Sequence record: OQ870566.1
Length of the DNA stretch: 64,000 nt
Direction: 5' to 3' (one strand)
DNA from: Escherichia phage SR02
The notes beneath the pieces were generated by a model. That model had not been told where the DNA came from. It worked only from the letters and a program-made list of their open reading frames with translations, and made no database searches. Position numbers and translations under genes: made by a program. This document shows positions 23,946 to 39,613 of the stretch, piece after piece. Positions within the stretch are counted from its first letter, which is position 1, and each line of letters begins with the position of its first letter.

Positions 23946-24148
23946 ATAAGTATAAAGTCCTGTTTAAAGATACCAATGCAGCTGGCGAAATGCGAGCAAT
24001 GGATATTGACGCTGAATACTTCCGAAGTGAGCTTGATCAGATAGTATTCTATGAGCGCGGTAGTCGACCTGCTAATGAATCAGAAGTTATTGCTTCATTC
24101 GGTAAAGAAGCAATCTGCGGTGTAATCAAAATCTTTATTACAGAGTAA
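23942..24148 (+). CDS. hypothetical small protein (GTG start)
   Basis: ORF-track only. Confidence 0.3.
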   Translation: MNKYKVLFKDTNAAGEMRAMDIDAEYFRSELDQIVFYERGSRPANESEVIASFGKEAICGVIKIFITE

Positions 24149-24217
24149 TCTGCTCTAGTCTCTTCGAAAGAGGAGGCTAGTTCGGATAAACTAAACAAAC
24201 CAACAAAGGTATAGATA

Positions 24218-24637
24218 ATGTCAGAAGTAATTTACGTAGCAACTTATGGTTCTCTTCGTCGTGGTCAAGCTAACTATCTAGTTAATGACCGAGCTGGTGC
24301 TAAGTCAATTGGTGAAGGTTGGACTGAAGACAACTTTGATCTGTTCCGCTATGGTGGTTCCTACTTCCCAAGCATCTCTCTCGCACACAGCAATAACAAT
24401 AAGCCTGTTCGTGTAGAAGTGTTTGCTACTGACAAAGCAGGTCTGGAAGGTCCATACGATCGTCTGGAAGGTTACAATAAACGTAGCCCTGAAGATAGCT
24501 TCTATCAACGAACTCAGATTGCCGTTAAGCTGGACTCAGGTGAAACTGTTATCGCTTGGATTTATCACATTGACGAAGAACAAGATGTTCTGGTTGAATC
24601 TGGCGACTGGTCAGAGTATCTGAAAAGTGAATCTTGA
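24218..24637 (+). CDS. AIG2/gamma-glutamyl cyclotransferase-like protein
   Basis: ATYGSLRRG and LDRLEGY motifs. Confidence 0.55.
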   Translation: MSEVIYVATYGSLRRGQANYLVNDRAGAKSIGEGWTEDNFDLFRYGGSYFPSISLAHSNNNKPVRVEVFATDKAGLEGPYDRLEGYNKRSPEDSFYQRTQIAVKLDSGETVIAWIYHIDEEQDVLVESGDWSEYLKSES

Positions 24638-24830
24638 GAAAAGACAGGCTCTTCGGAGACTTGAAGCCAAATACTTAATGCTACGGTGCAAAATCAACCG
24701 ACATGAACGTTTCGTTGAAGCTGCACAATCTAAAAACTTTGAATCATCAGTGGAGATGTTCAAGACCCAACTTTCTTTTTATAGGAAAGAACAGGAACAA
24801 GTGTGGGATGAAATTCGTTCGTTCTACTAA
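24627..24830 (+). CDS. hypothetical small protein
   Basis: ORF-track only; GTG start. Confidence 0.3.
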   Translation: MNLEKRQALRRLEAKYLMLRCKINRHERFVEAAQSKNFESSVEMFKTQLSFYRKEQEQVWDEIRSFY

Positions 24831-24856
24831 GCTCAAGGATTCCAAGGAGGAAGAGC

Positions 24857-26647
24857 ATGTCAAAGATCATTTTGGGAGACACAGGTTGTAAGGAATGTAT
24901 CTCTCATGGTCGTGATAAAACCCACAACCACATGATTCTCTTCCGTAACGAAGAGACAGGTGAGGAGTGGGGAAGTTGTAACCGTTGTGGGAATTACGAA
25001 GTGTTCGAAAAGGGCACTACACCTACTCCAAACGAGAAGAAAGAGTTGTCCCCTGAAGAGTTAAGAGAAGTCTTAGATGATTGCTTAGAGCTTCCTCAGG
25101 GTGAACTCACTCGACGTTTAATCCCTAAAGCCGTATCAGAGCGTTTTGAGTGTCGCATTGGTCTAAGTCAGACTGATGGTCAGACTCCAGACAGCTACTT
25201 CTTTCCTCGTGAACGTGATGGAAACATTGTCGGTTATGAGGTTAAGCTGCTTGACAGTAAGAAGTTCTATTACGTTGGCAGTGTGAAAGAAGCAGATTTA
25301 TTTGGTATGGCACAGGCTCAGCGTGGTGATGTGTACAACAAGAAGCTCTTCATTTTTGAAGACCCGCTATCTTGTATGTCTGGTTTCCATGTCCTTACAG
25401 CTTTTACAAATGCAACAAACATTAAACCAGCATGTGTTTCTTTACCGTTCGGTGCAGGTTCAATCTCTTCTGTGTTGTCTCGTAATCGAGACTTCGTAAA
25501 TGGTTTTGAGGAGGTTGTGCTCTGCATGGACAACGATGATGCAGGTGAGATAGCTTTAACAAAAGGTCGTTCTTTATTCCCTCATGTTAAATTTGCTCGT
25601 ATCCCTAAAGGAACTTTCCCATACAACGGTGTGGAGAAAGAGATTAAGGATGCGAATGACATGCTTCTGTCTGGTCGTGGTCAAGAGTTATTCAACATTC
25701 TCAAGTACTCAGCAAAGCGGGAATCTCCTGCTGGAGCTGTAACAATCTTTGATTGCCTTGATGATGCTCTGAAGAAAGCGGAGTGGGGTATCCCATATCC
25801 GTGGAAGACTCTGAATGAGATGACCTTCGGTATTCGATGGGGAGAGGTGGTAGCAATCGGTGGTGGTGTAGGTAGTGGTAAAACATTAATTGCTCACGAA
25901 CTTGTTGCTCATCTGTGCTTAGAGCATGGTTTTAATGGAGGTGGCTTCTTCTTGGAAGAGAAGGTAGGCATGTCTGTTAAGAATATCGCTGGTAAGTCAG
26001 CATCAATCCCTTTCCACCGACCTGATGTTGAATATGACGAGGAGGATTTGCGTAATGAAGCACTTCGTTATGCAGACAAATTCTTCTTGTATGACAACTT
26101 CGGGCAGAATGAATGGGAAGACATTAAACAGTGTATCCGTTTCTGGGTAGTTGAAAACCAGTGTAAGTTCATCATCCTTGATAACATTACCGCTCTGGTA
26201 TCTCATTTAACACCTTCAGAAATTAACACCGAAATTAGTAAGATTGCTTCCGAGCTTGCTGGTATGTGTAAAGAGTTAGACTTTACCGCTTTCGTACTAT
26301 CTCACCTTAATGCTCCGGCAGGTGGTGCTCCTCACGAAGAAGGTGGACAGGTACGTGAAGTCCAGTTCACTGGCTCTCGTTCTCTTATGCGTTGGTGTCA
26401 GTGTATCATTGGCTTTGAGCGTGACAAGCAAGCTGATGGCTTAGCTAAGAACCTCTCAGTCATTCGATTACTGAAAGAACGTAATTACGGTCAGACGGGT
26501 GTCTGCTATACTAAGTATATCAGTGAAACCGGTAGACTTGTAGAAAGGGAAGACTTTGAAGTTGATGAAGATAATCCATTCGTTTTAACTAACGGAGAGG
26601 ATGCAGCTTCTCTCGTCAACCAAGCAGATGGAGCTTCACCGTGGTAA
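24857..26647 (+). CDS. DNA primase/helicase (T7 gp4-like)
   Basis: N-terminal Zn finger CKEC...CNRC, TOPRIM-like region, Walker [10 protein letters not shown]. Confidence 0.85.
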
Positions 26648-27195
26648 AGAAAAAGAAAGTGTTTGCATTCGATATCGAGAGTAATGCACTGTACGATGAC
26701 ATAACTAAAGTGTGGTGTATTTACATCTTCGATGTTGAAACTGGTGAAAGGTGGGGCTATCGGCCTCACCAAATTGAAGATGGGATTCGTAAACTTACAG
26801 AAGCTGATGTGCTCGTAGGTCATAATATTATTGACTTCGACCTTTGTGCTCTGAAGAAGATGTATCCCAATCTGATCGACTATCGTTTTAACGTCTTTGA
26901 CACTTTATGTCTTAGTCGATATCTTAAACCTGACCGTATTGGTGACAGTCCTGAGTATCCGAAAGGCGACCCTAGACATGGCCCAAGAGGTCATGGCTTG
27001 AAGCAATGGGGTGAGTTCTTAGAGGAACTTAAAGGTGACTACGGTGAGCAAGAGGAAGCATGGGATGCTTTCACTGAGGATATGTTTACTTATTGTGAAC
27101 AGGACGTTAACTTAACTGTTAAGGTTTATCTTTTCTTGTGTGAACTCACGGGATTTGACCCTTACGACCCACCTTCATTATATTGGAAAATGTAA
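26641..27195 (+). CDS. DNA polymerase 3'-5' exonuclease domain protein (split family A polymerase, N-terminal part)
   Basis: FDIESN, HNIIDFD, YCEQDV exo motifs aligned by eye to T7 polymerase residues 1-190. Confidence 0.8.
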
Positions 27196-27196
27196 A

Positions 27197-28495
27197 ATGA
27201 TTGTTATCCCGATTAACCGAATTGAAGATAAGGTTGCTCAACAACCTGATATCACTGTTGGTCGTCACTTTATTGAACAGTTGATTAACAACAACTTGAT
27301 TCCAGATTGTATTTGTCCCATCATCACTGGTGGGGCTGTTCGTGATGCTGTTCTTAATAATAGAGCACCTCATGACATTGATATCTTTATTGTCAGAGGA
27401 CAGGCACCAAGAACCCAAAATACTTTTATCCATCATGACCAGTGGCAAGATCTCGGACGAGAGGTTGAAAGTAATGTGAAAGAGTGGCTCGAGTCTCAAG
27501 ATATTGAGTACTCTTCCCTTCTTGCTGAATCTACAGATGAGCCGTATACTGGGACTTCTCAACTAACATTCACTGATATTATTGAGTTTCAGTGGAATGG
27601 GGTTCGTATCCAATTCATGTTTAACTATCCTACTTCTATTGAAGAGGTATTGGATAATTTTCCTATGATGTGTCGTGGTGCGATGACTCTTGACAAGCTG
27701 TTCATGACCCCCCATGGATATTTGTCTATGACCTCTCCTTGTCCAGTAGTTGTCTCTGGTCGTGAAATCAAGTATGTTCACAAGAAGTGGCCTAATTCAC
27801 AGGTATTAAGATTCTCCTCTCCATCTGTTGCATACCAATATATGGCACAATCTCGATATCTTCCTACACCTCAACCAGTTAATCATCTGGTCAACGAACG
27901 AGGTCAGGTTGCTCTTATTGAGGATACAACAAGTGCTCAGTATTGTGTTGACCGTGACATGAGTCGATTCTTTGGAATCCCTTATGAAGAGATTCAGTTA
28001 ATGTCAAGCACACATGGCTCTAGCCAGATTCATGCGTATTGGTCTGAAGGGTTGACAAATTTAACAACTAACACGGGTGGTGATCTACTTGGTCGAGAAG
28101 AGGAACCTAACCGACACAATGCAATTGAAGGGGTGTTTGTAGCCCCTGCAATGCGTAGAGCACAAGAGTCACGAAGAGTAAGCCCTACTCGTAGAACATC
28201 TTTTGAAGAAGCTCTTGGTATTACAAGAGATTCTATGGAGAGATGGATGGCTAGCACCTCTCGTGGTCGACCAAATGGTTTGACTGTCAGCCGTCATCAG
28301 TTCTCTGGTCAGGGCTTTGCTGTTGGCGATCTTGATATTCCTTCTCATGGTGAGCTGGCTGAGACTGTCAGTCGCAGTCTCGCTGATCGCTTTGTTGCTA
28401 ACAACCCTGAAGTATTAGAACCTCAAACCCGTACAGTTCGGTTTGCTGATGAAGCGGGTCGTGGAATCTCTTTTGACGTAGAAACAAATAACTAA
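27197..28495 (+). CDS. nucleotidyltransferase (pol-beta superfamily, CCA-adding/poly(A)-polymerase-type head) with unknown C-terminal extension
   Basis: GGAVRDAVL...HDIDIF motif. Confidence 0.55.
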   Translation: MIVIPINRIEDKVAQQPDITVGRHFIEQLINNNLIPDCICPIITGGAVRDAVLNNRAPHDIDIFIVRGQAPRTQNTFIHHDQWQDLGREVESNVKEWLESQDIEYSSLLAESTDEPYTGTSQLTFTDIIEFQWNGVRIQFMFNYPTSIEEVLDNFPMMCRGAMTLDKLFMTPHGYLSMTSPCPVVVSGREIKYVHKKWPNSQVLRFSSPSVAYQYMAQSRYLPTPQPVNHLVNERGQVALIEDTTSAQYCVDRDMSRFFGIPYEEIQLMSSTHGSSQIHAYWSEGLTNLTTNTGGDLLGREEEPNRHNAIEGVFVAPAMRRAQESRRVSPTRRTSFEEALGITRDSMERWMASTSRGRPNGLTVSRHQFSGQGFAVGDLDIPSHGELAETVSRSLADRFVANNPEVLEPQTRTVRFADEAGRGISFDVETNN

Positions 28496-28504
28496 GGAAT
28501 AAGA

Positions 28505-29059
28505 ATGAGTTTACTAGGAAGCCCAGAGTTACATAAACTAATTGATGATGGTGTTATTGATGCACCACACTCAGCTGTTAACTCCTCCAGCATTGACGTC
28601 CGTATTGGAGATCGTGTTCTGATGGAAGGTGCAGCTAATGGGGTTGTTGATATCTCTGCTAAAGAATCTCCTAACTTCAACGAGGTTATGATTCCAGAGG
28701 AAGGGTTGGTGATCAAACCGGGTGAGTGTTTCTTGGCTCATACAGTGGAGACATTCAATCTTCCAGACAACATTAGCTGTGACTTCATGCTACGATCTAC
28801 TGTCGGTCGTTGCTTCTTAGAGCACATGCACGCTGGTCATGCAGATGGCGGTTGGCATGGCAGTCAGTTAACTATGGAATTCAAGAATGTCCTACAACAT
28901 CACTCTCTTCTGATCAAGCCGGGGATGCGTATTGGTCAAATGGAGTTCTTTAAACACTCCTCATCCGAAGAGGACAGTTACGCAACGAAAGGTTCATATA
29001 ATAACCAACAAGGGCCGACAAAAGCTTTTGGTGGAACAAACCATGCTGATATGCTATGA
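28505..29059 (+). CDS. dCTP deaminase/dUTPase-family protein
   Basis: SSIDVRIG, RSTVGR, ADGGWHGSQLTMEF motifs. Confidence 0.65.
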   Translation: MSLLGSPELHKLIDDGVIDAPHSAVNSSSIDVRIGDRVLMEGAANGVVDISAKESPNFNEVMIPEEGLVIKPGECFLAHTVETFNLPDNISCDFMLRSTVGRCFLEHMHAGHADGGWHGSQLTMEFKNVLQHHSLLIKPGMRIGQMEFFKHSSSEEDSYATKGSYNNQQGPTKAFGGTNHADML

Positions 29060-29552
29060 TGAAGTAGTTGACCTCTTTAATATAGACATGTCAGCACCTT
29101 CAGGGCTTTCTTGGAAAAGGAAGCCTAGTAAGTTTGCTAATGATATAGTAGGTAAACCTGCTGGTAAGCTCACAAAAGATGGATATTATCAAATTCCCTT
29201 AGGAGGAGTTCGTGTCCATAATCATAGGATTCTTTTTGTTCTTTATACTGGTGAGGATTTATCGGATGAATATCAAATAGATCATGCTGACGGTAATAGA
29301 GAAAACCTAGAAGAAACTAACCTGAGAAAATGCTCTCACTCTGAGAATAGTCAGAATGCTAAGACAAGGGTTGATAACAAACTAGGAATCAAGAATGTCT
29401 ACCGAGAGAAAGGTGGAACGTTCTGTGTATCTGTTCAAAAAGACGGTAAACGTGAGTCTGTATATGGGGTGAAAACTCTTGAAGAGGCTAAGATTTTGGC
29501 TAAGTCTATGAGAAGTAGACTTCATCTCTCCTTTAATGTGGATGAAAGATAA
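29043..29552 (+). CDS. HNH homing endonuclease with C-terminal AP2-like DNA-binding domain
   Basis: YQIDHADGNRENLEE...HSEN HNH motif; AP2-like VYREKGGTFCVSV. Confidence 0.7.
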   Translation: MLICYDEVVDLFNIDMSAPSGLSWKRKPSKFANDIVGKPAGKLTKDGYYQIPLGGVRVHNHRILFVLYTGEDLSDEYQIDHADGNRENLEETNLRKCSHSENSQNAKTRVDNKLGIKNVYREKGGTFCVSVQKDGKRESVYGVKTLEEAKILAKSMRSRLHLSFNVDER

Positions 29553-29747
29553 ATGAAAAAGTTTTGGTTAGTGAAGATTAAGTGGTCATCTGGTTGTACG
29601 ACTATGACCGCACTACCTACTCGTCAACAGGCTCGAGATTTTAAAAAGTCTATGTTCCATGGAGATTTAACTAAGAGCGTTAGTATCCATAAGGCCAAGG
29701 AGTATTCTTCTGGTCGTGTTTATATCAGCGGAAAGGTACATTACTAA
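29553..29747 (+). CDS. small protein (MKK..W...Y-terminal paralog group)
   Basis: Similar N/C termini to 29747 and 31165. Confidence 0.4.
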   Translation: MKKFWLVKIKWSSGCTTMTALPTRQQARDFKKSMFHGDLTKSVSIHKAKEYSSGRVYISGKVHY

Positions 29748-29956
29748 TGAAAAAGATGTGGGCTATTCATGTTGTTTGGGATCTTGAGCAACACATGAGA
29801 AAAGATAACATCAAATTGTTTGACACTCGCAAAGAGGCTCGTATTGCTAAGAAACAGTTGAAGACTCTGGGCACAATAGTAAAAAGCGCTGACATACATC
29901 GCTGGTATGAAGACCCTAACACTGGTTCTTTTATGTCTAAAGTAATTTACTACTGA
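29747..29956 (+). CDS. small protein (paralog group)
   Basis: MKKMW...VIYY. Confidence 0.4.
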   Translation: MKKMWAIHVVWDLEQHMRKDNIKLFDTRKEARIAKKQLKTLGTIVKSADIHRWYEDPNTGSFMSKVIYY

Positions 29957-29980
29957 TTGGTAGTAGATATGATAACTCTC

Positions 29981-29989
29981 AAATGTATA
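29981..29989 (+). promoter_or_regulatory. AAATGTATA motif (variant of TAATGTATA) upstream of 30029
   Basis: Motif ~40 nt upstream of start. Confidence 0.35.
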
Positions 29990-30028
29990 TAGAGTACAAT
30001 AAGAATTTGTATTTTACAGGAGAGAGTT

Positions 30029-30358
30029 ATGTTAGATTTGAGTAAAGTGGCCCCGCCCACTGAAGAGATTACAAAATCCAAGGTGATGCAACAGTTTTAT
30101 CATCGTGATATGCTTGGTCGCTTTATCAAGAATCGTGATGTTGTTGCTTGGTCTATCGGTAATCAGGGATATCTGTTGAAGGTTCTTCAGGTCACAGGTT
30201 CAACTGCTAAGCGAGTTAAGGTGTATGACCCTGAAATGGGGCGTTCTAAGTCAGTAGACCCACAGAACTGCATCGTAATTACCCAGCAGGTAATGGATAA
30301 CATTGCACGTAACGTTGCTAACTCAGTTGAACTTGATGGAGAAAACCCAAATGCATAA
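30029..30358 (+). CDS. hypothetical protein
   Basis: GGAGAG RBS; preceded by AAATGTATA motif. Confidence 0.5.
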   Translation: MLDLSKVAPPTEEITKSKVMQQFYHRDMLGRFIKNRDVVAWSIGNQGYLLKVLQVTGSTAKRVKVYDPEMGRSKSVDPQNCIVITQQVMDNIARNVANSVELDGENPNA

Positions 30359-30914
30359 GAATGTCTTTGATTTACCTGAGATTGGTCGTGTCGACTACAA
30401 TATGTTAGACCGGTCTGAGCTTTCAATCTCTCGCCTTGAAACAATGCAAGGCATGATTAGTGGAAACAGCCTAGAACACATCCTGAGCTGCTTACAAGCT
30501 AACATGGAACTCTTGCATATCAAAGCTAAAAACTACCACTGGAACGTCTCTGGTGCAGGATTTCAGGGTGTTCATGGTATGTTTGATGAGCTTGAAGATT
30601 ACGCACGACAAGTAGGAGATCGTATTGCTGAACGTATGCGTTACCACTGTGTTAAAGTGGATGCTACAGCAGCCAATTATCTTTCTCATGCTTGGTTCTC
30701 AGAGGGTAATGCTGACCTAGACATGGACGGTATGCTCTCTGATATGTGCATGACCTTGATGTGTATTATTGAGAAGATGGATGAGTTTGATGGTGATTTA
30801 GCCACTTATCCAGTTGATCAGAGTATGCTTCAAGAAATTAATGAAGGTCTTGGCAAGTATTGCTACTTCGTCAAGAGCAACATGTCCCACTCAAGTGGTG
30901 ATGTGTCTTATTAA
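30351..30914 (+). CDS. Dps/ferritin-like protein
   Basis: KNYHWNVSGAGFQGVHGMFDELEDYARQVGDRIAERM matches Dps ferroxidase-site region. Confidence 0.6.
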   Translation: MHKNVFDLPEIGRVDYNMLDRSELSISRLETMQGMISGNSLEHILSCLQANMELLHIKAKNYHWNVSGAGFQGVHGMFDELEDYARQVGDRIAERMRYHCVKVDATAANYLSHAWFSEGNADLDMDGMLSDMCMTLMCIIEKMDEFDGDLATYPVDQSMLQEINEGLGKYCYFVKSNMSHSSGDVSY

Positions 30915-30975
30915 AAACCTCCGCCCTGTCTCCTAATCCGAGGTGGGGCGAACTCATTTATAAGGATATAAATAT

Positions 30976-31155
30976 ATGTTATCAGCAATCGTATGGGGTA
31001 TTTGGGCTATCTTTATTGGTGGTGGTATCTATTGGGCTTCTGGCAAGCTTATTGAAGAAACTCCTGACAAGAAAGGTGAGATTCAAACAGCATCAACCAT
31101 CATGGTTATCGTAGCTGTTGTTATCCCATTCCTGCTTCACCTCCTGACTGCATAA
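30976..31155 (+). CDS. 59-aa two-TM membrane protein
   Basis: AAGGA RBS; two hydrophobic segments. Confidence 0.4.
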   Translation: MLSAIVWGIWAIFIGGGIYWASGKLIEETPDKKGEIQTASTIMVIVAVVIPFLLHLLTA

Positions 31156-31164
31156 GGTTCTTAA

Positions 31165-31365
31165 ATGAAAAAATGGTCCGTAGTTTGTGTTGACCCTTCA
31201 GGTGCTATTCTATGGGACTTGACTGGTGATACAAGGAAAGAGATGCGTATTCTTAAAAAGATGCTCAAAGAAGATAACCCTCAAGGGGATGTTTTTCATT
31301 TAGTAAAAACAGAAATGTCCAAAAGTGGGAAGGTCCAACCTGACTTGAGTAAAATTTACTATTAA
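31165..31365 (+). CDS. small protein (paralog group)
   Basis: MKKWSVV...KIYY. Confidence 0.4.
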   Translation: MKKWSVVCVDPSGAILWDLTGDTRKEMRILKKMLKEDNPQGDVFHLVKTEMSKSGKVQPDLSKIYY

Positions 31366-31373
31366 GGAACCGA

Positions 31374-31649
31374 ATGTCTAAAGTAATTAAGTTTTATAGT
31401 GATCAGTGCGCTCCATGTAAAGCAATGGCTCCTACCTTTGAGAAGGTTGTTAAGGAGTTCGATGTAGAAGTGGAAGAGATTAACATCCTTGAAGGTGATG
31501 GTCGTGAACAAGCTGTTAAGTATGGTGTACGAAGCATCCCTGCTTTTGTTGTACCTGACCGTAACAGTGGTGCACACTACAGCCTCTCCGGTATGCAGAC
31601 TGAAGCAAACCTGAAAGCATTTTTGGACACAGCCCTGAGAAATAAGTAA
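31374..31649 (+). CDS. thioredoxin-family protein
   Basis: CAPC active-site motif followed by KAMAP. Confidence 0.7.
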   Translation: MSKVIKFYSDQCAPCKAMAPTFEKVVKEFDVEVEEINILEGDGREQAVKYGVRSIPAFVVPDRNSGAHYSLSGMQTEANLKAFLDTALRNK

Positions 31650-31664
31650 TAAGGATATTCACGG

Positions 31665-32321
31665 ATGAATGAACAACTACAAGCAACATTAATCGAAGCT
31701 ATGGGAAGTGATCGTAGCGTAGTAAACGCAGCTCGAGTTTCCTTTGGCGTAACCCGTGAAGGTGATTTAAATGAACGTGATGAACGTCTCATCAACTTCC
31801 TCGCAAGAGAGAAGCATGTCACGCCTTTCAGGCACCCGCAAGTCAGTTTCCGATGCAAAGCACCTATCGCAATTGCGAGACAGTTGGGCAAGCATCAGGT
31901 TGGATTCTCGTGGAACGAAATGTCCCGGCGGTATAAAGATGGAGCAGTTGAAGTCTTCATCCCTAAAGAGATTTTTGCGAGACCTTCGGACCTCCATGCA
32001 GGTTCAGGGATTCAACTCATCGACGGAGAGCGAGCTGAAGCATTAATGCTGATTAACGATGCATATGAAGCTTCTCTAGCAGCATATGACAAGTTGATTG
32101 AATTTATTGCACCAGAGCAAGCTCGATTTGTTCTTCCTCAGGGGATGATCACTGAGTGGGTATGGACTGGTTCTTTATATGGCTGGTTTGAGTTATGTCG
32201 TCAGCGACTCTCCTCTCACGCTCAATATGAAGTTCGAGTGTTTGCTAAATCTCTGGATGAAGAGATGGCTAAACTTTACCCAATCTCATGGGCAGCTCTG
32301 AAGAAAACTTTGGAGAATTAA
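31665..32321 (+). CDS. thyX: ThyX-like flavin-dependent thymidylate synthase with divergent signature
   Basis: AARVSFG...HVTPFRHPQVSF...SWNEMSRRY; canonical RHR replaced by KHQ. Confidence 0.65.
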   Translation: MNEQLQATLIEAMGSDRSVVNAARVSFGVTREGDLNERDERLINFLAREKHVTPFRHPQVSFRCKAPIAIARQLGKHQVGFSWNEMSRRYKDGAVEVFIPKEIFARPSDLHAGSGIQLIDGERAEALMLINDAYEASLAAYDKLIEFIAPEQARFVLPQGMITEWVWTGSLYGWFELCRQRLSSHAQYEVRVFAKSLDEEMAKLYPISWAALKKTLEN

Positions 32322-32455
32322 TGTTGGAAGAAGATGACGATGTGTTCTGCACCAAGTGTGGGATGACAGTTGATGATGCATATGACCCAAGTGTAGAAAT
32401 TTGCCCTTGTTGTGGAGTATGTGAATATTGCTGTTCCCATAACTCAGAGGATTAG
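32321..32455 (+). CDS. 44-aa Cys-rich peptide
   Basis: TAATG coupling; CTKCG, CPCCGVCEYCC. Confidence 0.35.
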   Translation: MLEEDDDVFCTKCGMTVDDAYDPSVEICPCCGVCEYCCSHNSED

Positions 32456-32509
32456 CAGGAATTTCTGATGAAAATAAAACATATTACAGATATTCAGGAA
32501 GCATTCTAA

Positions 32510-32701
32510 ATGCCTCCTCGAAGAGAGAAGGATAAGATTAAAAAGCTTATTCAAGTTTATGGTCATACATCTAAAGATGATATAGACTATATGCCTTCTA
32601 CTTTCGTAGAATGTGGGATTGCTAGCGGTTTCACATTCGACCATAAAGTGTTTCAGCAATTCGTTGACCACTGGAGAAAAGATGGAAAAGAAGATCTGTA
32701 G
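32510..32701 (+). CDS. hypothetical small protein
   Basis: ORF-track. Confidence 0.4.
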   Translation: MPPRREKDKIKKLIQVYGHTSKDDIDYMPSTFVECGIASGFTFDHKVFQQFVDHWRKDGKEDL

Positions 32702-32867
32702 CTTCTGTAAGAAAGAGAAGCCTATCGCCAACTTTAAGCCCAATCCTGTGACTGGTCTGAATCATGTGATGTGTCACTCTTGTAGGATATATCTTGAAAC
32801 AAAGCACACCATTAACAGGTTGCACTATTATCACCCAACAACATTCAAATTTAAGGTTGTGAAATGA
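32682..32867 (+). CDS. small zinc-finger-like protein
   Basis: CSFCKK...CHSC. Confidence 0.4.
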   Translation: MEKKICSFCKKEKPIANFKPNPVTGLNHVMCHSCRIYLETKHTINRLHYYHPTTFKFKVVK

Positions 32868-33187
32868 TTGACAGTAATACATTTAGGACTTCAAATGGAA
32901 GTGAAATAAGTCCTGCTGAAGTAATTAATCGGCATAGAAGGCAATTGATCATCCATTCCTATTTGTATTACTGGTTGGATGACCCTATCTGGTCTGATGA
33001 TAAATGGCAACAAGTTGCTAATGATTTGGTTGAGTTGCAAGCCTTATATCCAGAGCCTACCGGAGTCTTTGACAATGAGTTCAAAGATTGGGATGGTTCT
33101 ACAGGAATGCACCTCCCACATAACGAAGCTGTTGCTTGTATGGCGACAGCTGTTTACAGACTTCATAAAGGGGTTAACTTCGCATGA
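32864..33187 (+). CDS. hypothetical protein
   Basis: Overlap coupling. Confidence 0.45.
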   Translation: MIDSNTFRTSNGSEISPAEVINRHRRQLIIHSYLYYWLDDPIWSDDKWQQVANDLVELQALYPEPTGVFDNEFKDWDGSTGMHLPHNEAVACMATAVYRLHKGVNFA

Positions 33188-33384
33188 GCGTAGTTTATGT
33201 TCTAGAAAGATATGCTGAAGATCACAACAGTATTGTTGCCATATTTAAATATGCCCCGGATGTTGAGGATATTTTGAATGTGACTCACTTAACTGATGTT
33301 GATAAAATCAAAGACCTCATCAGGAATGACAATGCCCACATAGGTGACTCCCTGTGGTCTCTTACTGAATGGACATTGTGGTGA
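33184..33384 (+). CDS. hypothetical small protein
   Basis: Overlap coupling. Confidence 0.4.
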   Translation: MSVVYVLERYAEDHNSIVAIFKYAPDVEDILNVTHLTDVDKIKDLIRNDNAHIGDSLWSLTEWTLW

Positions 33385-33566
33385 AGTGCTCTAAATGTGA
33401 AGGAACAAACCTTCATTTAAGTAACAAGGTTATCAGAGAGCTTGCCAAAGGCTCTCCAACCAAAGGGAAGAACAAACGATTTACTAATGTCAGGGTTTAT
33501 ACAGCAATCTGTAAAGACTGCTTAACTACTGAGTGTCATTACGAAGAAATTGGAGAGCGTAAATGA
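33369..33566 (+). CDS. small zinc-ribbon protein
   Basis: CSKCEG...CKDC. Confidence 0.4.
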   Translation: MDIVVKCSKCEGTNLHLSNKVIRELAKGSPTKGKNKRFTNVRVYTAICKDCLTTECHYEEIGERK

Positions 33567-34300
33567 GTCGTCGTCAATCACGGAAAGAATCACGGAAAGA
33601 TCTTCGTCGGGAAGCACTTGTTACTCGTAAGGGTAAGCGAGAGTATGAAGAGGTGGTTTTAGCAAAGCCTGTAGTCCCTCAGAACCAGTTTCAGTCTGAG
33701 CTACTCAATGCTATTAAGACTAAACAAGTTGTGTTCACAGACGCTCCTGCGGGCTGTGGTAAGACCTTTGTAATCACTTCCACAGTTATTGATGCACTGA
33801 AGAGTGGTAAGATTCAGAAGATCATTCTGAGTCGCCCTTCGGTAGGCATGGGTAATTCTCTTGGGTTACTTCCGGGAGGAATGCGTGAGAAGTTTGAACC
33901 ATACCTGATGCCTATCATTGATGTTATTACTCAGCGATACGGTAAGGGATTCTATGAATGCCAAATCGGAAATGGTAACATTGAGTTTGTACCTCTGGAA
34001 TATCTCCGTGGTCGTTCTTTCAATGATGCTATTGTTATTGTTGATGAGTTCCAGAACACAACTAAAGATGAAGCCTTCTCCATCATGACTCGATTGGGAG
34101 AAACCTCTCAGCTGTTCTGTATGGGTGATACAAACCAGCATGATATGCGTGGTCGTGAGAGTGGTCTTACTTGGGCTACTAACTTTATTGATGAACACGA
34201 TCTGTATGAGTTCGCTGAGATTGTAGATGGTGAATCAGATGATATTGTTCGTTCTGGTTTCTGTAAGGCGATTGTTAAAGCAATGGAAAAGAAAGCTTAA
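33563..34300 (+). CDS. phoH: PhoH-like ATPase
   Basis: Walker A APAGCGKTF and IVDEFQNTT. Confidence 0.8.
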   Translation: MSRRQSRKESRKDLRREALVTRKGKREYEEVVLAKPVVPQNQFQSELLNAIKTKQVVFTDAPAGCGKTFVITSTVIDALKSGKIQKIILSRPSVGMGNSLGLLPGGMREKFEPYLMPIIDVITQRYGKGFYECQIGNGNIEFVPLEYLRGRSFNDAIVIVDEFQNTTKDEAFSIMTRLGETSQLFCMGDTNQHDMRGRESGLTWATNFIDEHDLYEFAEIVDGESDDIVRSGFCKAIVKAMEKKA

Positions 34301-34311
34301 ACAGTAACTTA

Positions 34312-34320
34312 TAATGTATA
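34312..34320 (+). promoter_or_regulatory. TAATGTATA motif 36 nt upstream of 34357
   Basis: Exact TATAATGTATA. Confidence 0.45.
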
Positions 34321-34356
34321 CTCCTTAGTGTACACTGATATATTAAGGAGTTTTAA

Positions 34357-34674
34357 ATGGCAGACCATGTAGGAAAGAGAGATTATGCACAAGAAAGACG
34401 TACCGCAATTGCCCGTGGTGAAACAGGCGTTGGGAGCAAGAGCGGAGATGCTCAGCGCCACCGTGCACGTCGCATCGTTGAAAAGCGCGATGGAAAAGCT
34501 GCTGTCAGAGGTAAAGATGTTGGACACAAACGAGCTGTCAAGTCTGGAGGCTCTAATGCGTCAAGCAACTTACGTGTTGAATCAGTCAGCTCAAACCGTT
34601 CAAACGGCGGCAAAAGTGGTGATCGAGCTGGAAAAGCAAACGGAGCTAGGAAGGGGGCGTTGAGTGGTTCTTGA
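34357..34674 (+). CDS. basic Gly/Ser/Arg-rich hypothetical protein (frame ambiguous; overlapping +1 frame ORF 34385-34663)
   Basis: Strong AAGGAG RBS 36 nt after TAATGTATA motif; the alternative frame encodes a more helical protein. Confidence 0.35.
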   Translation: MADHVGKRDYAQERRTAIARGETGVGSKSGDAQRHRARRIVEKRDGKAAVRGKDVGHKRAVKSGGSNASSNLRVESVSSNRSNGGKSGDRAGKANGARKGALSGS

Positions 34675-35014
34675 TGACACCCTATCTTATGATGCGGTCA
34701 CAGGTAACCTATACTACACAAAATCTCCAAGCAAAGGAGTGATGTGGAACAAAAGCCATCCCGGAAAGATAGCTGGATGTAGGATATCGAAAGGCTATAT
34801 CGGTGTGTATTTCCAAGGAAGACAATGGAGAGCGCACCGGCTTATAGCTACACACTTTATACCAAACCCTAACAATTATCCAGAAGTCAACCACATAAAT
34901 GGGGTAAAAGACGATAATCGACTGGAGAATCTTGAATGGGTATCCGCTTCTGAAAACATACAACACTCCTTTGATACAGGGTTGAATAAAGGACATATTC
35001 GTGACAATAACTGA
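34664..35014 (+). CDS. HNH homing endonuclease (GTG start), separated by an in-frame TGA from a downstream HTH ORF
   Basis: HRLIATHF...VNHINGVKDDNRLENLEWVSASEN; by eye, collinear with the HNH at 29043. Confidence 0.6.
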   Translation: MVLDDTLSYDAVTGNLYYTKSPSKGVMWNKSHPGKIAGCRISKGYIGVYFQGRQWRAHRLIATHFIPNPNNYPEVNHINGVKDDNRLENLEWVSASENIQHSFDTGLNKGHIRDNN

Positions 35015-35155
35015 ATGACCAAGCTATCTTCTGAGGATGTTGTAAAGATTAAACAGATGTATGTGAAGGGTTCTAGGGATTTTGGCTCTAGAGGTCTTGG
35101 TAAGTTGTTTGGCGTGAGTCATACAGCAATACTTCATGCTTTAAAGGAGCTTTAA
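35015..35155 (+). CDS. 46-aa HTH peptide, probable detached C-terminal DNA-binding module of the HNH endonuclease
   Basis: ATG directly after the in-frame TGA; GLGKLFGVSHTAILHAL HTH. Confidence 0.4.
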   Translation: MTKLSSEDVVKIKQMYVKGSRDFGSRGLGKLFGVSHTAILHALKEL

Positions 35156-35173
35156 GCTCATAAAGAGGTTATA

Positions 35174-35467
35174 GTGTCAGCAGAAACAAAAAGATGTACA
35201 ATTCATACTTATTGTAAATTCTGTAAAGCAGAGGGTGTAAAAAGAGTTGCAACTTTAATGACCAAGTATTCTCCAAGTAGAGGATACAGGGACCACTATA
35301 AGCACTACTCTTGTAGTGATCACTCCCATCTATTAGAAGATACAGACCCGAATAGAACAAGGAGAGAGCATAACATTGACCTGAGAGCTACTCTCAAGGA
35401 AATGAAAAACAACTCTCGAAACAACCATTACACTGAAGCTGACTATCAAACTTGGCTTCGTCTCTAG
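35174..35467 (+). CDS. Cys/His-rich hypothetical protein (GTG start)
   Basis: AAGAGG RBS. Confidence 0.45.
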   Translation: MSAETKRCTIHTYCKFCKAEGVKRVATLMTKYSPSRGYRDHYKHYSCSDHSHLLEDTDPNRTRREHNIDLRATLKEMKNNSRNNHYTEADYQTWLRL

Positions 35468-35471
35468 AACA

Positions 35472-35503
35472 AAGGCTGCCTAATCAGGTGGCCTTTTCTT
35501 TTA
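35472..35503 (+). terminator. rho-independent terminator
   Basis: AAGGCTGCC-TAATCA-GGTGGCCTT + TTTCTTTT; same hairpin family as 9312. Confidence 0.6.
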
Positions 35504-35536
35504 TATAAACCAAATTAAACTTCTTAGGTAATAAAT

Positions 35537-35791
35537 ATGTCTATTGTAAAAATCGTAAATATCATTGATGTAACTCGTACCGGTAAAACTATCAGTTGGA
35601 AATTCACCAATAAGCATAGAGGTTCAGAGAACATCATTCGTTATATGATTCAACAAAACCCAAATACAGCTCGCACTAACGTACTCCTTCGCGGAGCTGA
35701 TGGAAAATTTATCTCTTATAAGAATAAGAACGTAGAAAAATCTTTCCGTGTTGCAGTAGAAAACCTCATCCCATTCCCTAAAGGAGTTTAA
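35537..35791 (+). CDS. small protein, paralog of 35793
   Basis: Shared FISYKNK/FISYRDA and LIPFPKG/LMPFPKG. Confidence 0.5.
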   Translation: MSIVKIVNIIDVTRTGKTISWKFTNKHRGSENIIRYMIQQNPNTARTNVLLRGADGKFISYKNKNVEKSFRVAVENLIPFPKGV

Positions 35792-35792
35792 T

Positions 35793-36077
35793 ATGAATAA
35801 GTTAGCTATGGTTCAGATTCGAGACACATACCCCAATCGCCCAGAGCAGAAACCACGTACTTGGTCTTATCTATTGGCTGAGAGTAAGACTATTGATAGT
35901 TTCTCTGTAGAGATTGACACTATCCCAAAAAGCATCACGCTGCTTCCACATAAAACAGCAAGAACTCATGTGATGTTACGAGATAGCAAAGGTAAATTTA
36001 TCTCTTATCGAGATGCTCGAATCAACAGTGAAATTAAAGCTGCTATGGAATCTTTAATGCCATTCCCAAAAGGTTAA
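35793..36077 (+). CDS. small protein, paralog of 35537
   Basis: Tandem duplicate. Confidence 0.5.
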   Translation: MNKLAMVQIRDTYPNRPEQKPRTWSYLLAESKTIDSFSVEIDTIPKSITLLPHKTARTHVMLRDSKGKFISYRDARINSEIKAAMESLMPFPKG

Positions 36078-36080
36078 ACA

Positions 36081-36239
36081 ATGAAAGAGTATATTTACGT
36101 TGGTCAGCGCTGGTATGGTGATGAATGGGAAGGTGGATACTGCGTTGTGAAAGCTTTTAAGTCTGAAGAAGATGCCAAGGCATGGGTCTTAAAAGATGAC
36201 GTTGGCGAGAGAACTTACATTGAAGTGGAGGTGGAATAG
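36081..36239 (+). CDS. 52-aa hypothetical protein
   Basis: AAAGGTTA RBS. Confidence 0.4.
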   Translation: MKEYIYVGQRWYGDEWEGGYCVVKAFKSEEDAKAWVLKDDVGERTYIEVEVE

Positions 36240-36240
36240 G

Positions 36241-36645
36241 ATGCCATTACCAGCTAGACACCAAAACCGTTTCCTAGTTCTCAAGTGGGATGATATTGAA
36301 ATGAATCTCACTGAACATGAACTGGACTTGTTCCATGAACTTTTATCAGAAATTCGATCTGGTATCCCTGAACGTCAGTATGTAGTTATCAGTGATAAAC
36401 ACCCTCAAGAGTTTGAAGAAGCTTGGGGCATGAAGCTGGCCTACATTCAGAGAGCTATTAGAGAAAGAGAGGAAGTTGCCCATCAGAGGGTCATGGCCCA
36501 TCTGATCAGAGAGCAGCCTCTTGAAGTTAGGTCTTCACCCACACCAACTCCGTGGAGAGTTGAAGGTAACACTATCCGAGTATCTCCTAGTGACCTAGAT
36601 GCAATAACTGACAACCAAGCATTCACAGATTTACTTTACCAATAA
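36241..36645 (+). CDS. hypothetical protein
   Basis: GGAGG RBS. Confidence 0.5.
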   Translation: MPLPARHQNRFLVLKWDDIEMNLTEHELDLFHELLSEIRSGIPERQYVVISDKHPQEFEEAWGMKLAYIQRAIREREEVAHQRVMAHLIREQPLEVRSSPTPTPWRVEGNTIRVSPSDLDAITDNQAFTDLLYQ

Positions 36646-36661
36646 TTTAAAGGAGTATAAA

Positions 36662-38506
36662 GTGAGCAACCCGGACGCTCTCCCATTTTTGACAGAGATG
36701 ACTGTCGCTGATATAATCTCTAAGCAAGCAAAGCACGGAGTGAGTTTCAACCGAAGAAATGCTCGGTGGTATGTTCACCTCCTTAAAGAGATTATTGTTA
36801 ATATTGACAGAGAGTTGATTCCTCTCTTACCTAAGATGAGATTAGATGGCTCTACTTATATGAAGCCATTTAAGAAGTCTGGAGCTTTACAGAAGTGGCC
36901 CCAAGCCTATTGCGATAGGGTTGGCCTTAAGAGAGAAGACATTGGTGGAGCATTCACCTGTGTCGAATACGTAGACTTTGACCCATCGAAAGATGCACGA
37001 GTTAAAGAAGCCCTTATGGACGAGGGTTTTCTTCCTCCAGAGTTTAATGTATCAAAGAAACCTTGGAATACTTTTGAAATCAAGAAAGATATGAAAAAGT
37101 ATGGAACATACCAAGCGTGGTATTCAGCTTGGATGCGAGGTAATGCTAAGCAGAAGCAGACAGCCGAGATGGTTGACGCTGATATTAGGAAGTTCTTAGA
37201 AAAGCATTTTAGGTTTAAAACTAAGAACTACATGAAGGCTTATGTATTTGGTTTAGGTTTAAACCCTAACCGACGTAGACCTATCACTTTTGATGAGATT
37301 AAGATAGCACTAGCTACCTCAAACAAGTGGCCTACAGCTCCTACAAACCTCGAAGAGACTCTTGAAGAAGGGTTAGGGGGTGAGCTAGGGAGTGTCGGAA
37401 GTTTGCTTAAGAGACGCGTTGTAGCGGCTCACAGGTTAGGTCTTATTAGTGGACTCATAGCAAAGGAGCGCGAAGATGGTAAACTTTCGGCAGAAGCTAA
37501 CAGCTGTGCTACGCCGACTTTTCGATTCAAACATCGTATCGTGGTTAATATTCCCTCCCGTGGTTTGTTTGGTCACGAGTGTCGCAGTTTGTTTGAATCT
37601 GACTATAACTCAGATGATGATCACTCTCGTCCTTTCGTTATTACTAACGTTGTTCCTGATGGTTGTTATATACGAAAAGGTACTAACGTAATTTATGAGA
37701 AAGGTAAGCCGGGGAAGAAAGACAAACCTGTAGGTGCTTACAAATATTACATACCCGCTGGTAAAGAAGTATTCTTAGGGTATGATGGTTCTGGATTAGA
37801 ATTGCGTATGCTCGCACACTACCTCATTAAAGAGTGTAGGGACATGCTTGCTGAAGCAATAGAAGAGAATAACCCAGCTAAGAAAGCTCTGGCAGAACGT
37901 GGTTTAGCTTCTGCTATTATGTATCGTGATATTCTCCTTGAAGGTGATATCCACTCCCACAACCAGAAACTTGCTGGTCTTCCTACTCGCGACAACGCTA
38001 AGACGTTTATCTACGCATTCAACTATGGTGCTGGTGATGCTAAGCTTGGTTCAATTGTAGGTGGTGGGGCTGACGAAGGTTCAGTGATGCGAGCACGTTT
38101 CTTGGCAGAGAACCCATGTATTGCAATCCTCATTGATCGTATGACAGAGAAAGCTGCTCAAGGATACTTGATTGGTGTTGATGGTCGTAAGATTACAATG
38201 AGACGGGATGCCACTGGTAAGGTTATGGTTCATAAAGCACTTAACACTCTCCTGCAATGTGCTGGTGCTGTTGTTATGAAATATGCTATGATGTTCCTTA
38301 ACAAGTGGATTGAGAAAGATAAGGTTCGTTGTGCTAAGGTAATTGATATGCATGATGAAGGTCAATTCTCAGTGAACCGTAATGATGTACAGAAGCTAAA
38401 AGAGCACACCGAGCTTTGTGTTAAGAAGGCTGGTGAGTACTTGAAGATGGAATGCCCTCTGGCTTCTGATTGTCAGATTGGACTTAACTGGATGCACACA
38501 CACTAA
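36662..38506 (+). CDS. DNA polymerase, family A polymerase domain (C-terminal part of split T7-like polymerase)
   Basis: DGSGLELRMLAH, RDNAKTFIYAFNYGAGDAKLG, KALNTLLQCAG, DMHDEGQF motifs. Confidence 0.9.
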   Translation: MSNPDALPFLTEMTVADIISKQAKHGVSFNRRNARWYVHLLKEIIVNIDRELIPLLPKMRLDGSTYMKPFKKSGALQKWPQAYCDRVGLKREDIGGAFTCVEYVDFDPSKDARVKEALMDEGFLPPEFNVSKKPWNTFEIKKDMKKYGTYQAWYSAWMRGNAKQKQTAEMVDADIRKFLEKHFRFKTKNYMKAYVFGLGLNPNRRRPITFDEIKIALATSNKWPTAPTNLEETLEEGLGGELGSVGSLLKRRVVAAHRLGLISGLIAKEREDGKLSAEANSCATPTFRFKHRIVVNIPSRGLFGHECRSLFESDYNSDDDHSRPFVITNVVPDGCYIRKGTNVIYEKGKPGKKDKPVGAYKYYIPAGKEVFLGYDGSGLELRMLAHYLIKECRDMLAEAIEENNPAKKALAERGLASAIMYRDILLEGDIHSHNQKLAGLPTRDNAKTFIYAFNYGAGDAKLGSIVGGGADEGSVMRARFLAENPCIAILIDRMTEKAAQGYLIGVDGRKITMRRDATGKVMVHKALNTLLQCAGAVVMKYAMMFLNKWIEKDKVRCAKVIDMHDEGQFSVNRNDVQKLKEHTELCVKKAGEYLKMECPLASDCQIGLNWMHTH

Positions 38507-38514
38507 GGTGAGTG

Positions 38515-38880
38515 ATGAAAGAAACTAATATAATCTATAGAACACTTAGGTGTTTATTCAAGGAGAGAGGGATGGAAGATTTCCTCCTCCAGTATTATCA
38601 TATAACTCAAACAGAAGAGTGTCCTCCTTGGCTTAACGAAGATCACGGACTATGCTTCAACTTCCGCTGTTATAAGAAGTATTATTATTTCACAAAACAT
38701 CTAGACGTGGATGACATGAAGAATATGTTTAACCAAGATAAATTCTCGGACCATACATACCCTTTTGGCTGTGACCAATATTTCAGAGATAGGGATAACA
38801 GATCACACCACAAGAACCAAAAACGAATTACTTGGATTAAAGATACACTGAAAACTTTATATAATATTGAGGTTGAGTGA
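38515..38880 (+). CDS. hypothetical Cys-containing protein
   Basis: AAGGTGA RBS. Confidence 0.5.
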   Translation: MKETNIIYRTLRCLFKERGMEDFLLQYYHITQTEECPPWLNEDHGLCFNFRCYKKYYYFTKHLDVDDMKNMFNQDKFSDHTYPFGCDQYFRDRDNRSHHKNQKRITWIKDTLKTLYNIEVE

Positions 38881-39071
38881 TGAGTGTTTGTGGTTATTAT
38901 GAATCTTGGGCCGTCTTCAGCGGTGGCTCTACTCTCGTATCATTAAATGGTCAACTGTGTATCTTTGAGACAGAGAACTTAGCAATAACCAAAGCAGCAG
39001 AGCTAGTTCGAAAGTTTCCAAACAAGACATTCACAGTTAAAAGGATAGAAGTACCTGCATTGGTAGAGTGA
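38877..39071 (+). CDS. hypothetical small protein
   Basis: Overlap coupling. Confidence 0.45.
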   Translation: MMSVCGYYESWAVFSGGSTLVSLNGQLCIFETENLAITKAAELVRKFPNKTFTVKRIEVPALVE

Positions 39072-39254
39072 ATAAATAAGACGAATGAACTATTCTTATT
39101 GATTGGTTCGTAACAAGGAGATAGAAGTGGAAGAGATGCCATCGGATTGGTGTTATCGTCAAAGCGCCATCTGTAATGAACAAGGACGTCCTGATGAAGC
39201 TGAGTTTTATTTAGAACTTGCTGAACTATGGAAAGAGCGAGAGGAGAAAGAGTG

Positions 39255-39422: not shown

Positions 39423-39431
39423 GGAATACTA

Positions 39432-39608: not shown

Positions 39609-39613
39609 ATAAG

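Follow-up and report, generated by a model that had tools for sequence, protein, structure and literature searches.

The family A DNA polymerase of Escherichia phage SR02 is encoded in two pieces, a 3'-5' exonuclease gene (exo) and an exonuclease-less polymerase gene (pol), located 9.5 kb apart on the same (+) strand. Very probably, the two genes stem from one ancient fission of a T7 gp5-like gene and their products re-associate as a proofreading enzyme. The split arrangement is real but ancient, and the separation of exo and pol was described in papers of 2012 and 2023 (PMC3517423, PMC9965538). As the split polymerase has already been annotated and published, it is regarded here as an ordinary arrangement.

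Genome context and gene content

The window, i.e. the complete stretch of 64,000 nucleotides analysed from sequence record OQ870566.1, is on sequence grounds a Kuravirus (phiEco32-like) coliphage genome. It shows 92–95% nucleotide identity over 13 kb to the Kuravirus genomes EcoN5, ES17 and SU10, and shares gene order and annotation with phiEco32, SU10, EcoN5 and Bas89. The relevant features are the following:

24857–26647, + strand: primase/helicase, T7 gp4-like (Pfam DnaB_C 41.9 bits; Toprim_2 weakly matched)
26641–27195, + strand: predicted DEDDy 3'-5' exonuclease subunit for proofreading, corresponding to T7 gp5 residues 1–~203 (Pfam, phmmer, AF2)
27197–28495, + strand: nucleotidyltransferase with a sub-threshold CCA-adding/polyA-polymerase-like head domain (Pfam PolyA_pol 20.9 bits vs. 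23)
28505–29059, + strand: dCTP deaminase-like protein (Pfam DCD 110 bits)
29043–29552, + strand: HNH endonuclease 1, free-standing, predicted (Pfam HNH_3 37 bits; phrog_99)
30303–30914, + strand: Dps/ferritin-like DNA-binding protein, predicted (Pfam Ferritin 30.9 bits; phrog_3636)
31374–31649, + strand: thioredoxin with a CAPC active-site motif (Pfam Thioredoxin 50.6 bits)
31665–32321, + strand: flavin-dependent thymidylate synthase ThyX (Pfam Thy1 149 bits)
32864–33187, + strand: stand-alone NAD-ligase Ia-like domain protein (Pfam Nlig-Ia 120.7 bits)
33563–34300, + strand: PhoH-like ATPase (Pfam PhoH 191 bits)
34664–35155, + strand: HNH endonuclease 2, predicted, as two ORFs, 34664–35014 and 35015–35155 (Pfam HNH_3 40.8 bits)
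36662–38506, + strand: family A DNA polymerase without exonuclease domain, corresponding to T7 gp5 residues ~205–704 (Pfam, motifs, AF2)
45469–46296, + strand: FEN-like 5'-3' exonuclease, separately encoded, predicted (Pfam 5_3_exonuc_N 26.4 bits vs. 34.3, sub-threshold)

The primase/helicase label is carried by the counterpart genes in EcoN5, SU10 and phiEco32, and the stop of this gene overlaps the exo start by 7 nt (...GTGGTAA..., 26641–26647). At the position syntenic to 45469–46296, relatives are annotated with an "exonuclease". An earlier note on this DNA had placed about 25 genes between exo and pol, in agreement with the approximately 26 co-directional ORFs counted here. Its dCTP deaminase, ThyX, PhoH, ferritin/Dps-like and thioredoxin proteins, as well as two HNH_3 proteins, are all found in the gap by Pfam or PHROG matches. 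Conversely, its "CCA-type nucleotidyltransferase" can be retained as a nucleotidyltransferase (PHROG family phrog_12715, E = 5e-239), whereas the CCA type is seen at sub-threshold level only. The Dps-like ORF is given as listed, from 30303; the annotation of relatives implies a start near 30351, and the phiEco32 counterpart, gp67, is a "member of the Dps family".

The exonuclease and polymerase genes

The exo ORF (555 nt, 184 aa) comprises a complete DEDDy domain, which scores 32.8 bits against Pfam DNA_pol_A_exo1 (cut-off 23.6) and matches T7 gp5 residues 3–178 in phmmer (E = 2e-10). The catalytic residues were located in Exo I (D11, E13), Exo II (H61, N62, D65/D67) and Exo III (Y151, D155), following the patterns DxE, NxxxD/FD and YxxxD, respectively, and these motif residues are invariant in nine sequences (eight split phages and T7). 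For the AF2 model (pLDDT 82.9), the best 27 PDB matches are all T7 gp5 chains. A 14-residue C-terminal extension ends in a conserved FDPxDPP tail, a retained ancestral exo–pol linker motif (compare YFPPE in T7). The ORF is closed by TAA at 27193–27195, with the ATG of the next gene one base further. The phiEco32 orthologue gp74 is listed in RefSeq as "DNA polymerase exonuclease subunit".

The pol ORF (1845 nt, 614 aa) opens with a GTG preceded by its own strong Shine-Dalgarno sequence, AAGGAG, 6 nt upstream. It scores 83.4 bits against Pfam DNA_pol_A (gathering score 34.3) and matches T7 gp5 with E = 3e-31. The family A motifs were identified by the patterns DxxxLExR (A), RxxxKxxxYG (B) and HDE (C). 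Motif A, YDGSGLELR, aligns to T7 D475/E480; motif B reads RDNAKTFIYAFNYGAGDAKLG, with RDNAKTFIYAFNYGAG aligned to T7 R518/K522/Y526; and motif C, the HDE within MHDEGQ, aligns to T7 H653/D654/E655. The AF2 model (pLDDT 88.8) shows the right-hand fold of solved PolA structures, and T7 gp5 likewise provides its best 27 Foldseek matches, with E-values down to 1e-25. Alignment is weak between pol residues ~56–133 and T7 262–361, where pol is ~25 aa shorter. Clade-specific insertions were found at residues ~133–225, 314–364 and 389–416, the first being a helical thumb insertion of ~70–90 aa that is present in every exonuclease-less polymerase and absent from all fused sister polymerases. The orthologue in phiEco32, gp53, carries the RefSeq description "DNA polymerase; lacks 5'-3' and 3'-5' exonuclease domains".

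Concatenated, the two products are colinear with T7 gp5, and the junction falls at T7 ~203–205, the exo/pol domain boundary, with no residues lost or duplicated. Mapped to the polymerase profile PHROG 17, exo spans positions 668–826 and pol 836–1233. This alignment and profile bear out the central claim of the earlier note, that a family A polymerase, here of T7 type, is truly divided in two. Equally, 26641–27195 is an exonuclease domain only, ending in a stop, and 36662–38506 is a separate polymerase gene with motifs A/B/C, its own ribosome-binding site and a GTG start, as it had described; both ORFs are polymerase-derived with intact catalytic residues.

Distribution and age of the split

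The split is seen in Kuravirus, Aeromonas Lahexavirus, LUZ24-like Pseudomonas phages and metagenomic relatives. It was found in the window and in all nine fetched relatives with enough upstream sequence, and the phiEco32 annotation agrees. Virtually the same picture emerges from the best pol homologue clusters, ~110 out of ~110 of which are exonuclease-less. In a neighbour-joining tree of a sampled set of sequences (415 columns), the 39 exonuclease-less polymerases are monophyletic with a bootstrap value of 96/100, and their sister group consists of fused polymerases of 595–639 aa. This monophyly points to a single, old and clade-wide fission. The order primase/helicase, exo, pol on one strand recurs in phiEco32 and in relatives L001–L005, L007, L008, L087 and L088. 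Still, small ORFs lie between primase/helicase and exo in LAh_6 and L088, so translational coupling of these two genes is not universal. The identities of exo and pol follow one rank order across relatives, indicative of parallel divergence. Both the size of the exo–pol interval (1.4–10.5 kb) and its cargo vary between lineages, and nucleotide-metabolism genes have accumulated there.

A proposed proofreading replicase from two polypeptides

We propose that a T7 gp5-like ancestral gene was split once, exactly at the exonuclease/polymerase domain boundary; the entire exonuclease-less polymerase clade has inherited this split. Exo is read directly after the primase/helicase, with stop and start overlapping, and pol has its own Shine-Dalgarno sequence and GTG 9.5 kb downstream. 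The two polypeptides would re-associate non-covalently into a proofreading replicase, with an interface that presumably corresponds to the ancestral intramolecular contact between exonuclease and thumb/palm in T7 gp5. Exo and pol probably cooperate with the neighbouring primase/helicase. The phage thioredoxin may take part as well, and a role as processivity factor was hypothesized for it in PMC7881722. No thioredoxin homologue was found in the fetched 20–25 kb loci of LUZ24-like members, and the searchable literature returned no biochemical work on members of the exonuclease-less clade. A more elaborate version, in which compensating structural changes accompanied the fission, the thumb insertion and the FDPxDPP tail dock exo on pol and thioredoxin serves as third subunit, appears rather doubtful. 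If true, three dispersed genes of one module (exo, thioredoxin, pol) would together supply the replicase.

Alternatively, the detached exonuclease could have become an independent DEDD nuclease, acting e.g. in recombination, the processing of primers or the breakdown of host DNA, or it could associate with the primase/helicase, in either case leaving pol to replicate without dedicated proofreading. We consider this unlikely. Such a role would agree with the distance of 9.5 kb and with the coupling of exo to primase/helicase instead of pol, but not with the strict co-inheritance of exo and exonuclease-less pol in the window, the fetched relatives and phiEco32, nor with the parallel divergence of the two. 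While the stand-alone DEDD nucleases NrnC and RNase T are among the weaker structural matches to exo, the T7 gp5 exonuclease domain is the best match by a wide margin (E ~4e-10, compared to 1e-5 for the stand-alone nucleases), and the linker motif has been kept at the exo C-terminus.

HNH genes and the cause of the split

The HNH genes sit between conserved genes, and their presence is patchy among near-identical genomes: HNH 1 occurs in 10 phage records and the HNH 2 allele in 7, as compared to 74 for exo. In the window, an in-frame TGA ends the first ORF of HNH 2 (34664–35014) and the C-terminal part forms the second (35015–35155); by alignment, the EcoN5 counterpart is one continuous gene of 164 aa. 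No HNH gene was found in the exo–pol gap of phiEco32, SU10, LAh_6, UFV-P2/LUZ24-like phages, L008, L087 or L088, and in phiEco32 and SU10 the identical split encloses an HNH-free gap of 8.0–8.6 kb. Judged by this distribution, the HNH genes are recent passengers of the interval, present only sporadically. The dcd protein is 100% identical among HNH 1-carrying relatives and 58.5% identical to that of HNH-less SU10. This signature of a dcd+HNH cassette partly supports local remodelling of the gap by HNH genes, and to this extent the mobile-element-driven insertions invoked in the earlier note stand; as the cause of the split they are unsupported.

It is highly improbable that the split itself arose when insertions driven by HNH homing endonucleases recently broke up an intact polymerase gene. 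The idea draws on the two HNH_3 genes within the gap, on HNH 1 co-travelling with the adjacent dcd allele, and on the invasion of related pol genes at motif B by a group I intron with an endonuclease ORF. It is unsupported because phiEco32, SU10 and the other phages named above are split without any HNH gene in the gap. Moreover, out of 9.5 kb between exo and pol the HNH genes take up ~1 kb, their records are few relative to those of exo, and the split clade is monophyletic and deep, down to ~33% pol identity.

Regarding intron RNA, no Rfam match was obtained at E ≤ 0.1 across 24000–40000, while the positive control of the scan, RF00028 (group I intron), was found in the Bas89 pol gene with 48.1 bits. 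No Hint/intein Pfam domain was found, and the T7 alignment has no surplus residues for split-intein halves at the point where the end of exo meets the start of pol. Together with the stop and start contexts, these results show no intron or intein signature at the boundaries and leave exo and pol as two products joined by neither intron, intein nor frameshift. The notion that both are exons of one gene, united by cis- or trans-splicing, protein splicing or recoding, can be practically dismissed: the UFV-P2 paper loosely suggests joining for LUZ24-like phages by terming both genes "exons" (PMC3890496) and group I introns are known in this polymerase family (Bas89 pol), but ~26 conserved protein-coding genes fill the interval, intron-like RNA is found at neither border, exo closes with a stop, pol opens at a Shine-Dalgarno-preceded GTG, and the T7 alignment has no room for split-intein halves.

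Implications

For annotation, the label of each gene should mark it as a subunit of a single replicase, and exo is not to be taken for a truncated or pseudogenised polymerase. T7 gp5 is a well-understood enzyme, and the clade offers a natural experiment in which its domains have been separated. This could reveal how proofreading survives detachment of the exonuclease, and how the gap in a former gene comes to receive nucleotide-metabolism cargo. Neither of these two points is new from this window.

Comparison with known systems

The closest counterparts are phiEco32 gp74/gp53 and the Kuravirus/Gordonclarkvirinae orthologues, which have the same gene lengths (555 and 1845 nt). The gene order primase/helicase, exo, nucleotidyltransferase, dcd, Dps-like, thioredoxin, ThyX, PhoH, pol is shared with phiEco32/Kuravirus, and the differences are at strain level only. 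Relative to EcoN5 and SU10, amino acid identity is 98–99% for pol and ~97% for exo. Two HNH genes, one interrupted by a stop codon, lie in the gap of the window, and phiEco32 and SU10 have neither there; the dcd allele of the window differs from that of SU10.

In LUZ24-like phages (LUZ24, PaP3, tf, UFV-P2), the genes are named "DNA polymerase part I / part II", and the split was noted in PMC3517423. They share the fission point and the location of exo directly after the primase/helicase, and their polymerases belong to the same monophyletic exonuclease-less clade at ~40% identity. In contrast to the window, the gap of 1.9–2.1 kb holds tiny ORFs without nucleotide-metabolism cargo, and the polymerase (~545 aa) lacks Kuravirus residues 148–169 and 389–416.

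T7 gp5 is the closest solved structure for both halves and colinear with them. Its catalytic motifs are matched, including the Tyr at the Y526 position, the pol thumb appears to carry an insertion where T7 has its thioredoxin-binding domain, and a primase/helicase is encoded upstream. A separate gene for a 5'-3' exonuclease likewise exists in T7 (gp6) and phiEco32 (gp33). T7 gp5 is, however, a single chain of 704 aa, as opposed to the separate chains of exo (184 aa) and pol (614 aa). The pol loop that may correspond to the thioredoxin-binding domain is ~25 aa shorter than in T7 and is followed by a helical insertion of ~90 aa that T7 lacks. Furthermore, T7 gp5 works with host thioredoxin, whereas the phage analysed here encodes its own.

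In the E. coli Pol III core, the separately encoded polymerase and proofreading subunits, alpha (DnaE) and epsilon (DnaQ), act as one enzyme, and so do the two polymerase halves of the split family B gp43 in the T4-related phage Aeh1. Pol III alpha and epsilon may serve as a functional analogy for a replicase of exo and pol. Still, Pol III and Aeh1 gp43 belong to unrelated families (C and B, respectively), and their fission points and interfaces differ from those of exo and pol.

Organisation of the two polymerase genes

In SR02 a family A DNA polymerase is encoded by two separate genes, as an earlier note made from the sequence had claimed; Pfam, T7 gp5 and PHROG matches as well as AF2 models bear out the division. 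That observation is confirmed, while the interpretation attached to it is supported in part (see below).

26641-27195, + strand: exonuclease ORF, 184 aa, GTG start
36662-38506, + strand: polymerase ORF, 614 aa, GTG start 6 nt after AAGGAG

The exonuclease ORF begins inside the end of the primase/helicase gene (24857-26647), the two sharing 7 nt that include the primase/helicase stop codon; GGAG lies 7 nt upstream of the exonuclease start, and the ATG of the next gene follows one base after the exonuclease stop. The product scores above threshold for Pfam DNA_pol_A_exo1 and matches T7 gp5 residues 3-178 (E = 2e-10) as well as PHROG families titled "DNA polymerase exonuclease subunit". Aligned with its counterparts from seven further split phages and from T7, it shows no variation at the Exo I, II and III residues. 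The 27 best PDB matches of its AF2 model (pLDDT 82.9) are T7 gp5 chains, compared to which stand-alone DEDD nucleases are five orders of magnitude poorer.

The polymerase ORF carries motifs A, B and C, and its AF2 model (pLDDT 88.8) is likewise best matched by T7 gp5. Its N-terminal 360 residues are unmatched by Pfam and align to the T7 thumb/TBD (T7 ~205-470), with clade-specific insertions; a residual exonuclease fold was rejected for this region on these grounds. One insertion of ~70-90 aa in the thumb (residues ~133-225) is helical, with AF2 helices at 137-218, and was present in 39/39 exo-less polymerases examined and in 0/8 of the fused sister polymerases. Further insertions at residues 314-364 and 389-416 belong mainly to the Kuravirus/Lahexavirus branch; some LUZ24-like members have part of the 314-364 segment.

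At 36689-36717 (+), within the opening 56 nt of the polymerase coding sequence, the sigma-70 consensus is matched perfectly (TTGACA, 17 nt, TATAAT, upstream TG), the sole 12/12 match in 16 kb. EcoN5 and SU10 have the identical site, Bas89 has a degraded -35 element, and the site is lost in the IMG/VR contig L007. It is either a chance product of the coding sequence or an internal promoter specific to the lineage, and was given no weight because its conservation is limited to close relatives.

Position of the break and integrity of the halves

Concatenated, the two products are colinear with T7 gp5. The exonuclease end (...PPSLYWKM) falls opposite T7 ~203 and the polymerase start (MSNPDALPFLTEM...) opposite T7 ~205, placing the breakpoint at the exonuclease/polymerase domain boundary. 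In the PHROG 17 polymerase profile, positions 668-826 are covered by the exonuclease and 836-1233 by the polymerase. The break is thus a clean fission at the domain boundary, with nothing missing or duplicated.

Joining of the halves by splicing or by an intein was rejected on three counts. An Rfam scan of 24000-40000, group I and II introns included, gave no match at E<=0.1; no intein domain was found by domain search; and the T7 gp5 alignment leaves no spare residues for split-intein halves at the junction. The same scan detected RF00028 (48.1 bits) in an element of the Bas89 polymerase gene, and therefore works on this gene family.

The Bas89 element, which the polymerase gene of the window lacks, spans ~780 nt (13363-14145 of the Bas89 record), interrupts motif B between N454 and Y456, and combines its group I intron matches with an endonuclease ORF. 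The number of 437-460-aa proteins in the databases (P0014-17, P0080-82, BUCT695) suggests that this interruption is common.

HNH genes and cargo of the interval

Between the two genes lie ~26 co-directional ORFs, and the + strand carries every gene from ~13.8 kb to 47 kb; the GC skew changes sign at ~48 kb. The functions previously proposed here were recovered for dCTP deaminase, Dps/ferritin-like, thioredoxin, ThyX and PhoH proteins and for two HNH_3 genes; the nucleotidyltransferase is weaker, its Pfam PolyA_pol match lying below threshold.

28505-29059, + strand: dCTP deaminase-like gene (dcd)
29043-29552, + strand: first HNH gene (HNH1), overlapping dcd by 17 nt
31374-31649, + strand: thioredoxin with a CAPC, not CGPC, motif
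32864-33187, + strand: stand-alone 107-aa protein, NAD-dependent-ligase Ia-like domain alone (Pfam Nlig-Ia, E = 4e-35)
34664-35155, + strand: second HNH gene (HNH2)

The 107-aa product is titled "DNA ligase" in relatives, for which it is much too short. HNH2 contains an in-frame TGA followed directly by ATG, giving ORFs 34664-35014 and 35015-35155, where EcoN5 has a single continuous 164-aa ORF; the gene centre is ~70% identical to EcoN5 and both flanks are nearly identical.

To the earlier note, the arrangement suggested an ancestral polymerase gene disrupted and expanded by mobile-element-driven insertions. A recent HNH-driven disruption was rejected, as phiEco32, SU10, LAh_6, UFV-P2, an IMG/VR LUZ24-like contig and two metagenomic contigs (L087, L088) are split with no HNH homologue in the gap. 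Among megablast phage records, HNH1 occurs in 10 and the HNH2 allele of the window in 7, against 74 for the exonuclease gene. Judged by this distribution and by the HNH-less gaps, the HNH genes, ~1 kb of the 9.5 kb gap, are sporadic passengers. They nevertheless appear to move flanking DNA, because dcd identity tracks HNH1 carriage: in EcoN5 and Bas89, which both carry HNH1, the dcd protein shows 100% identity, although neighbouring Bas89 genes reach just 33-95%, and in SU10, which lacks the HNH gene, the value is 58.5%. The pattern resembles a dcd-HNH cassette or co-conversion by homing. Mobile-element-driven expansion thus contributed locally and recently at most, and an HNH origin of the split is not supported.

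The nucleotide-metabolism cargo differs by lineage. Kuravirus (window 27196-36661) carries nucleotidyltransferase, dcd, Dps-like, thioredoxin, ThyX and PhoH genes, and LAh_6 dcd, NrdD/G, PhoH and ThyX; L088 has glutaredoxin and class I ribonucleotide reductase, and LUZ24-like phages and L087 tiny ORFs only. Among the large ORFs of the window, none was recognised as a ribonucleotide reductase.

Age and spread of the split

Some 70-100 Escherichia and Shigella podophage genomes, including EcoN5, ES17, SU10 and SGF2 of the genus Kuravirus (Gordonclarkvirinae), match 13 kb around the two genes at 92-95% nucleotide identity. Other lineages show the same split, with the exonuclease downstream of primase/helicase and upstream of the polymerase.

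Split relatives: polymerase identity to the window; gap
IMG/VR contig L007: 74%; 8.5 kb
Aeromonas phage LAh_6: 50%; 9.6 kb
UFV-P2 and IMG/VR LUZ24-like contig: ~40%; 1.9-2.1 kb
Metagenomic contigs L087 and L088: gaps of 1.4 and 6.3 kb, the larger holding the glutaredoxin and reductase genes

All ~110 best homologue clusters of the polymerase (490-618 aa) are exo-less. In a neighbour-joining tree (415 columns, rooted on T7), 39 exo-less sequences were monophyletic in 96/100 bootstraps, with fused polymerases of 595-639 aa as sister group. Across eight genomes, exonuclease and polymerase identities to the window rank in the same order. The parsimonious reading of these sequence relationships is a single ancient fission, after which the two genes descended vertically together.

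Proposed replicase and comparison with known phages

The two products are intact, separately translated, strongly conserved and always inherited together. We infer that they would re-associate via the ancestral exonuclease-thumb/palm interface, and that the resulting complex may act as a proofreading replicase with the adjacent primase/helicase. A phage thioredoxin has been proposed as polymerase processivity factor (PMC7881722); by alignment, the polymerase has a TBD-equivalent loop, shorter than that of T7 gp5. The detached exonuclease bears a 14-residue C-terminal extension, and one may speculate that this extension and the thumb insertion compensate for the lost covalent link. We met no description of either in the literature, and our literature searches turned up no biochemical study of a split PolA from the phiEco32/LUZ24-type clade.

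The split arrangement itself is already known, since polymerase and 3'-exonuclease were described as separate genes in all LUZ24-group phages, with phiEco32 organised similarly (PMC3517423, 2012), and the separation as common to all Kuravirus-like phages and relatives (PMC9965538, 2023). For the phiEco32 type genome, the split is taken from the RefSeq annotation and from the citation in PMC3517423. The annotated layout is that of the window: gp74 is a [quoted passage not shown] and gp53 a "DNA polymerase; lacks 5'-3' and 3'-5' exonuclease domains".
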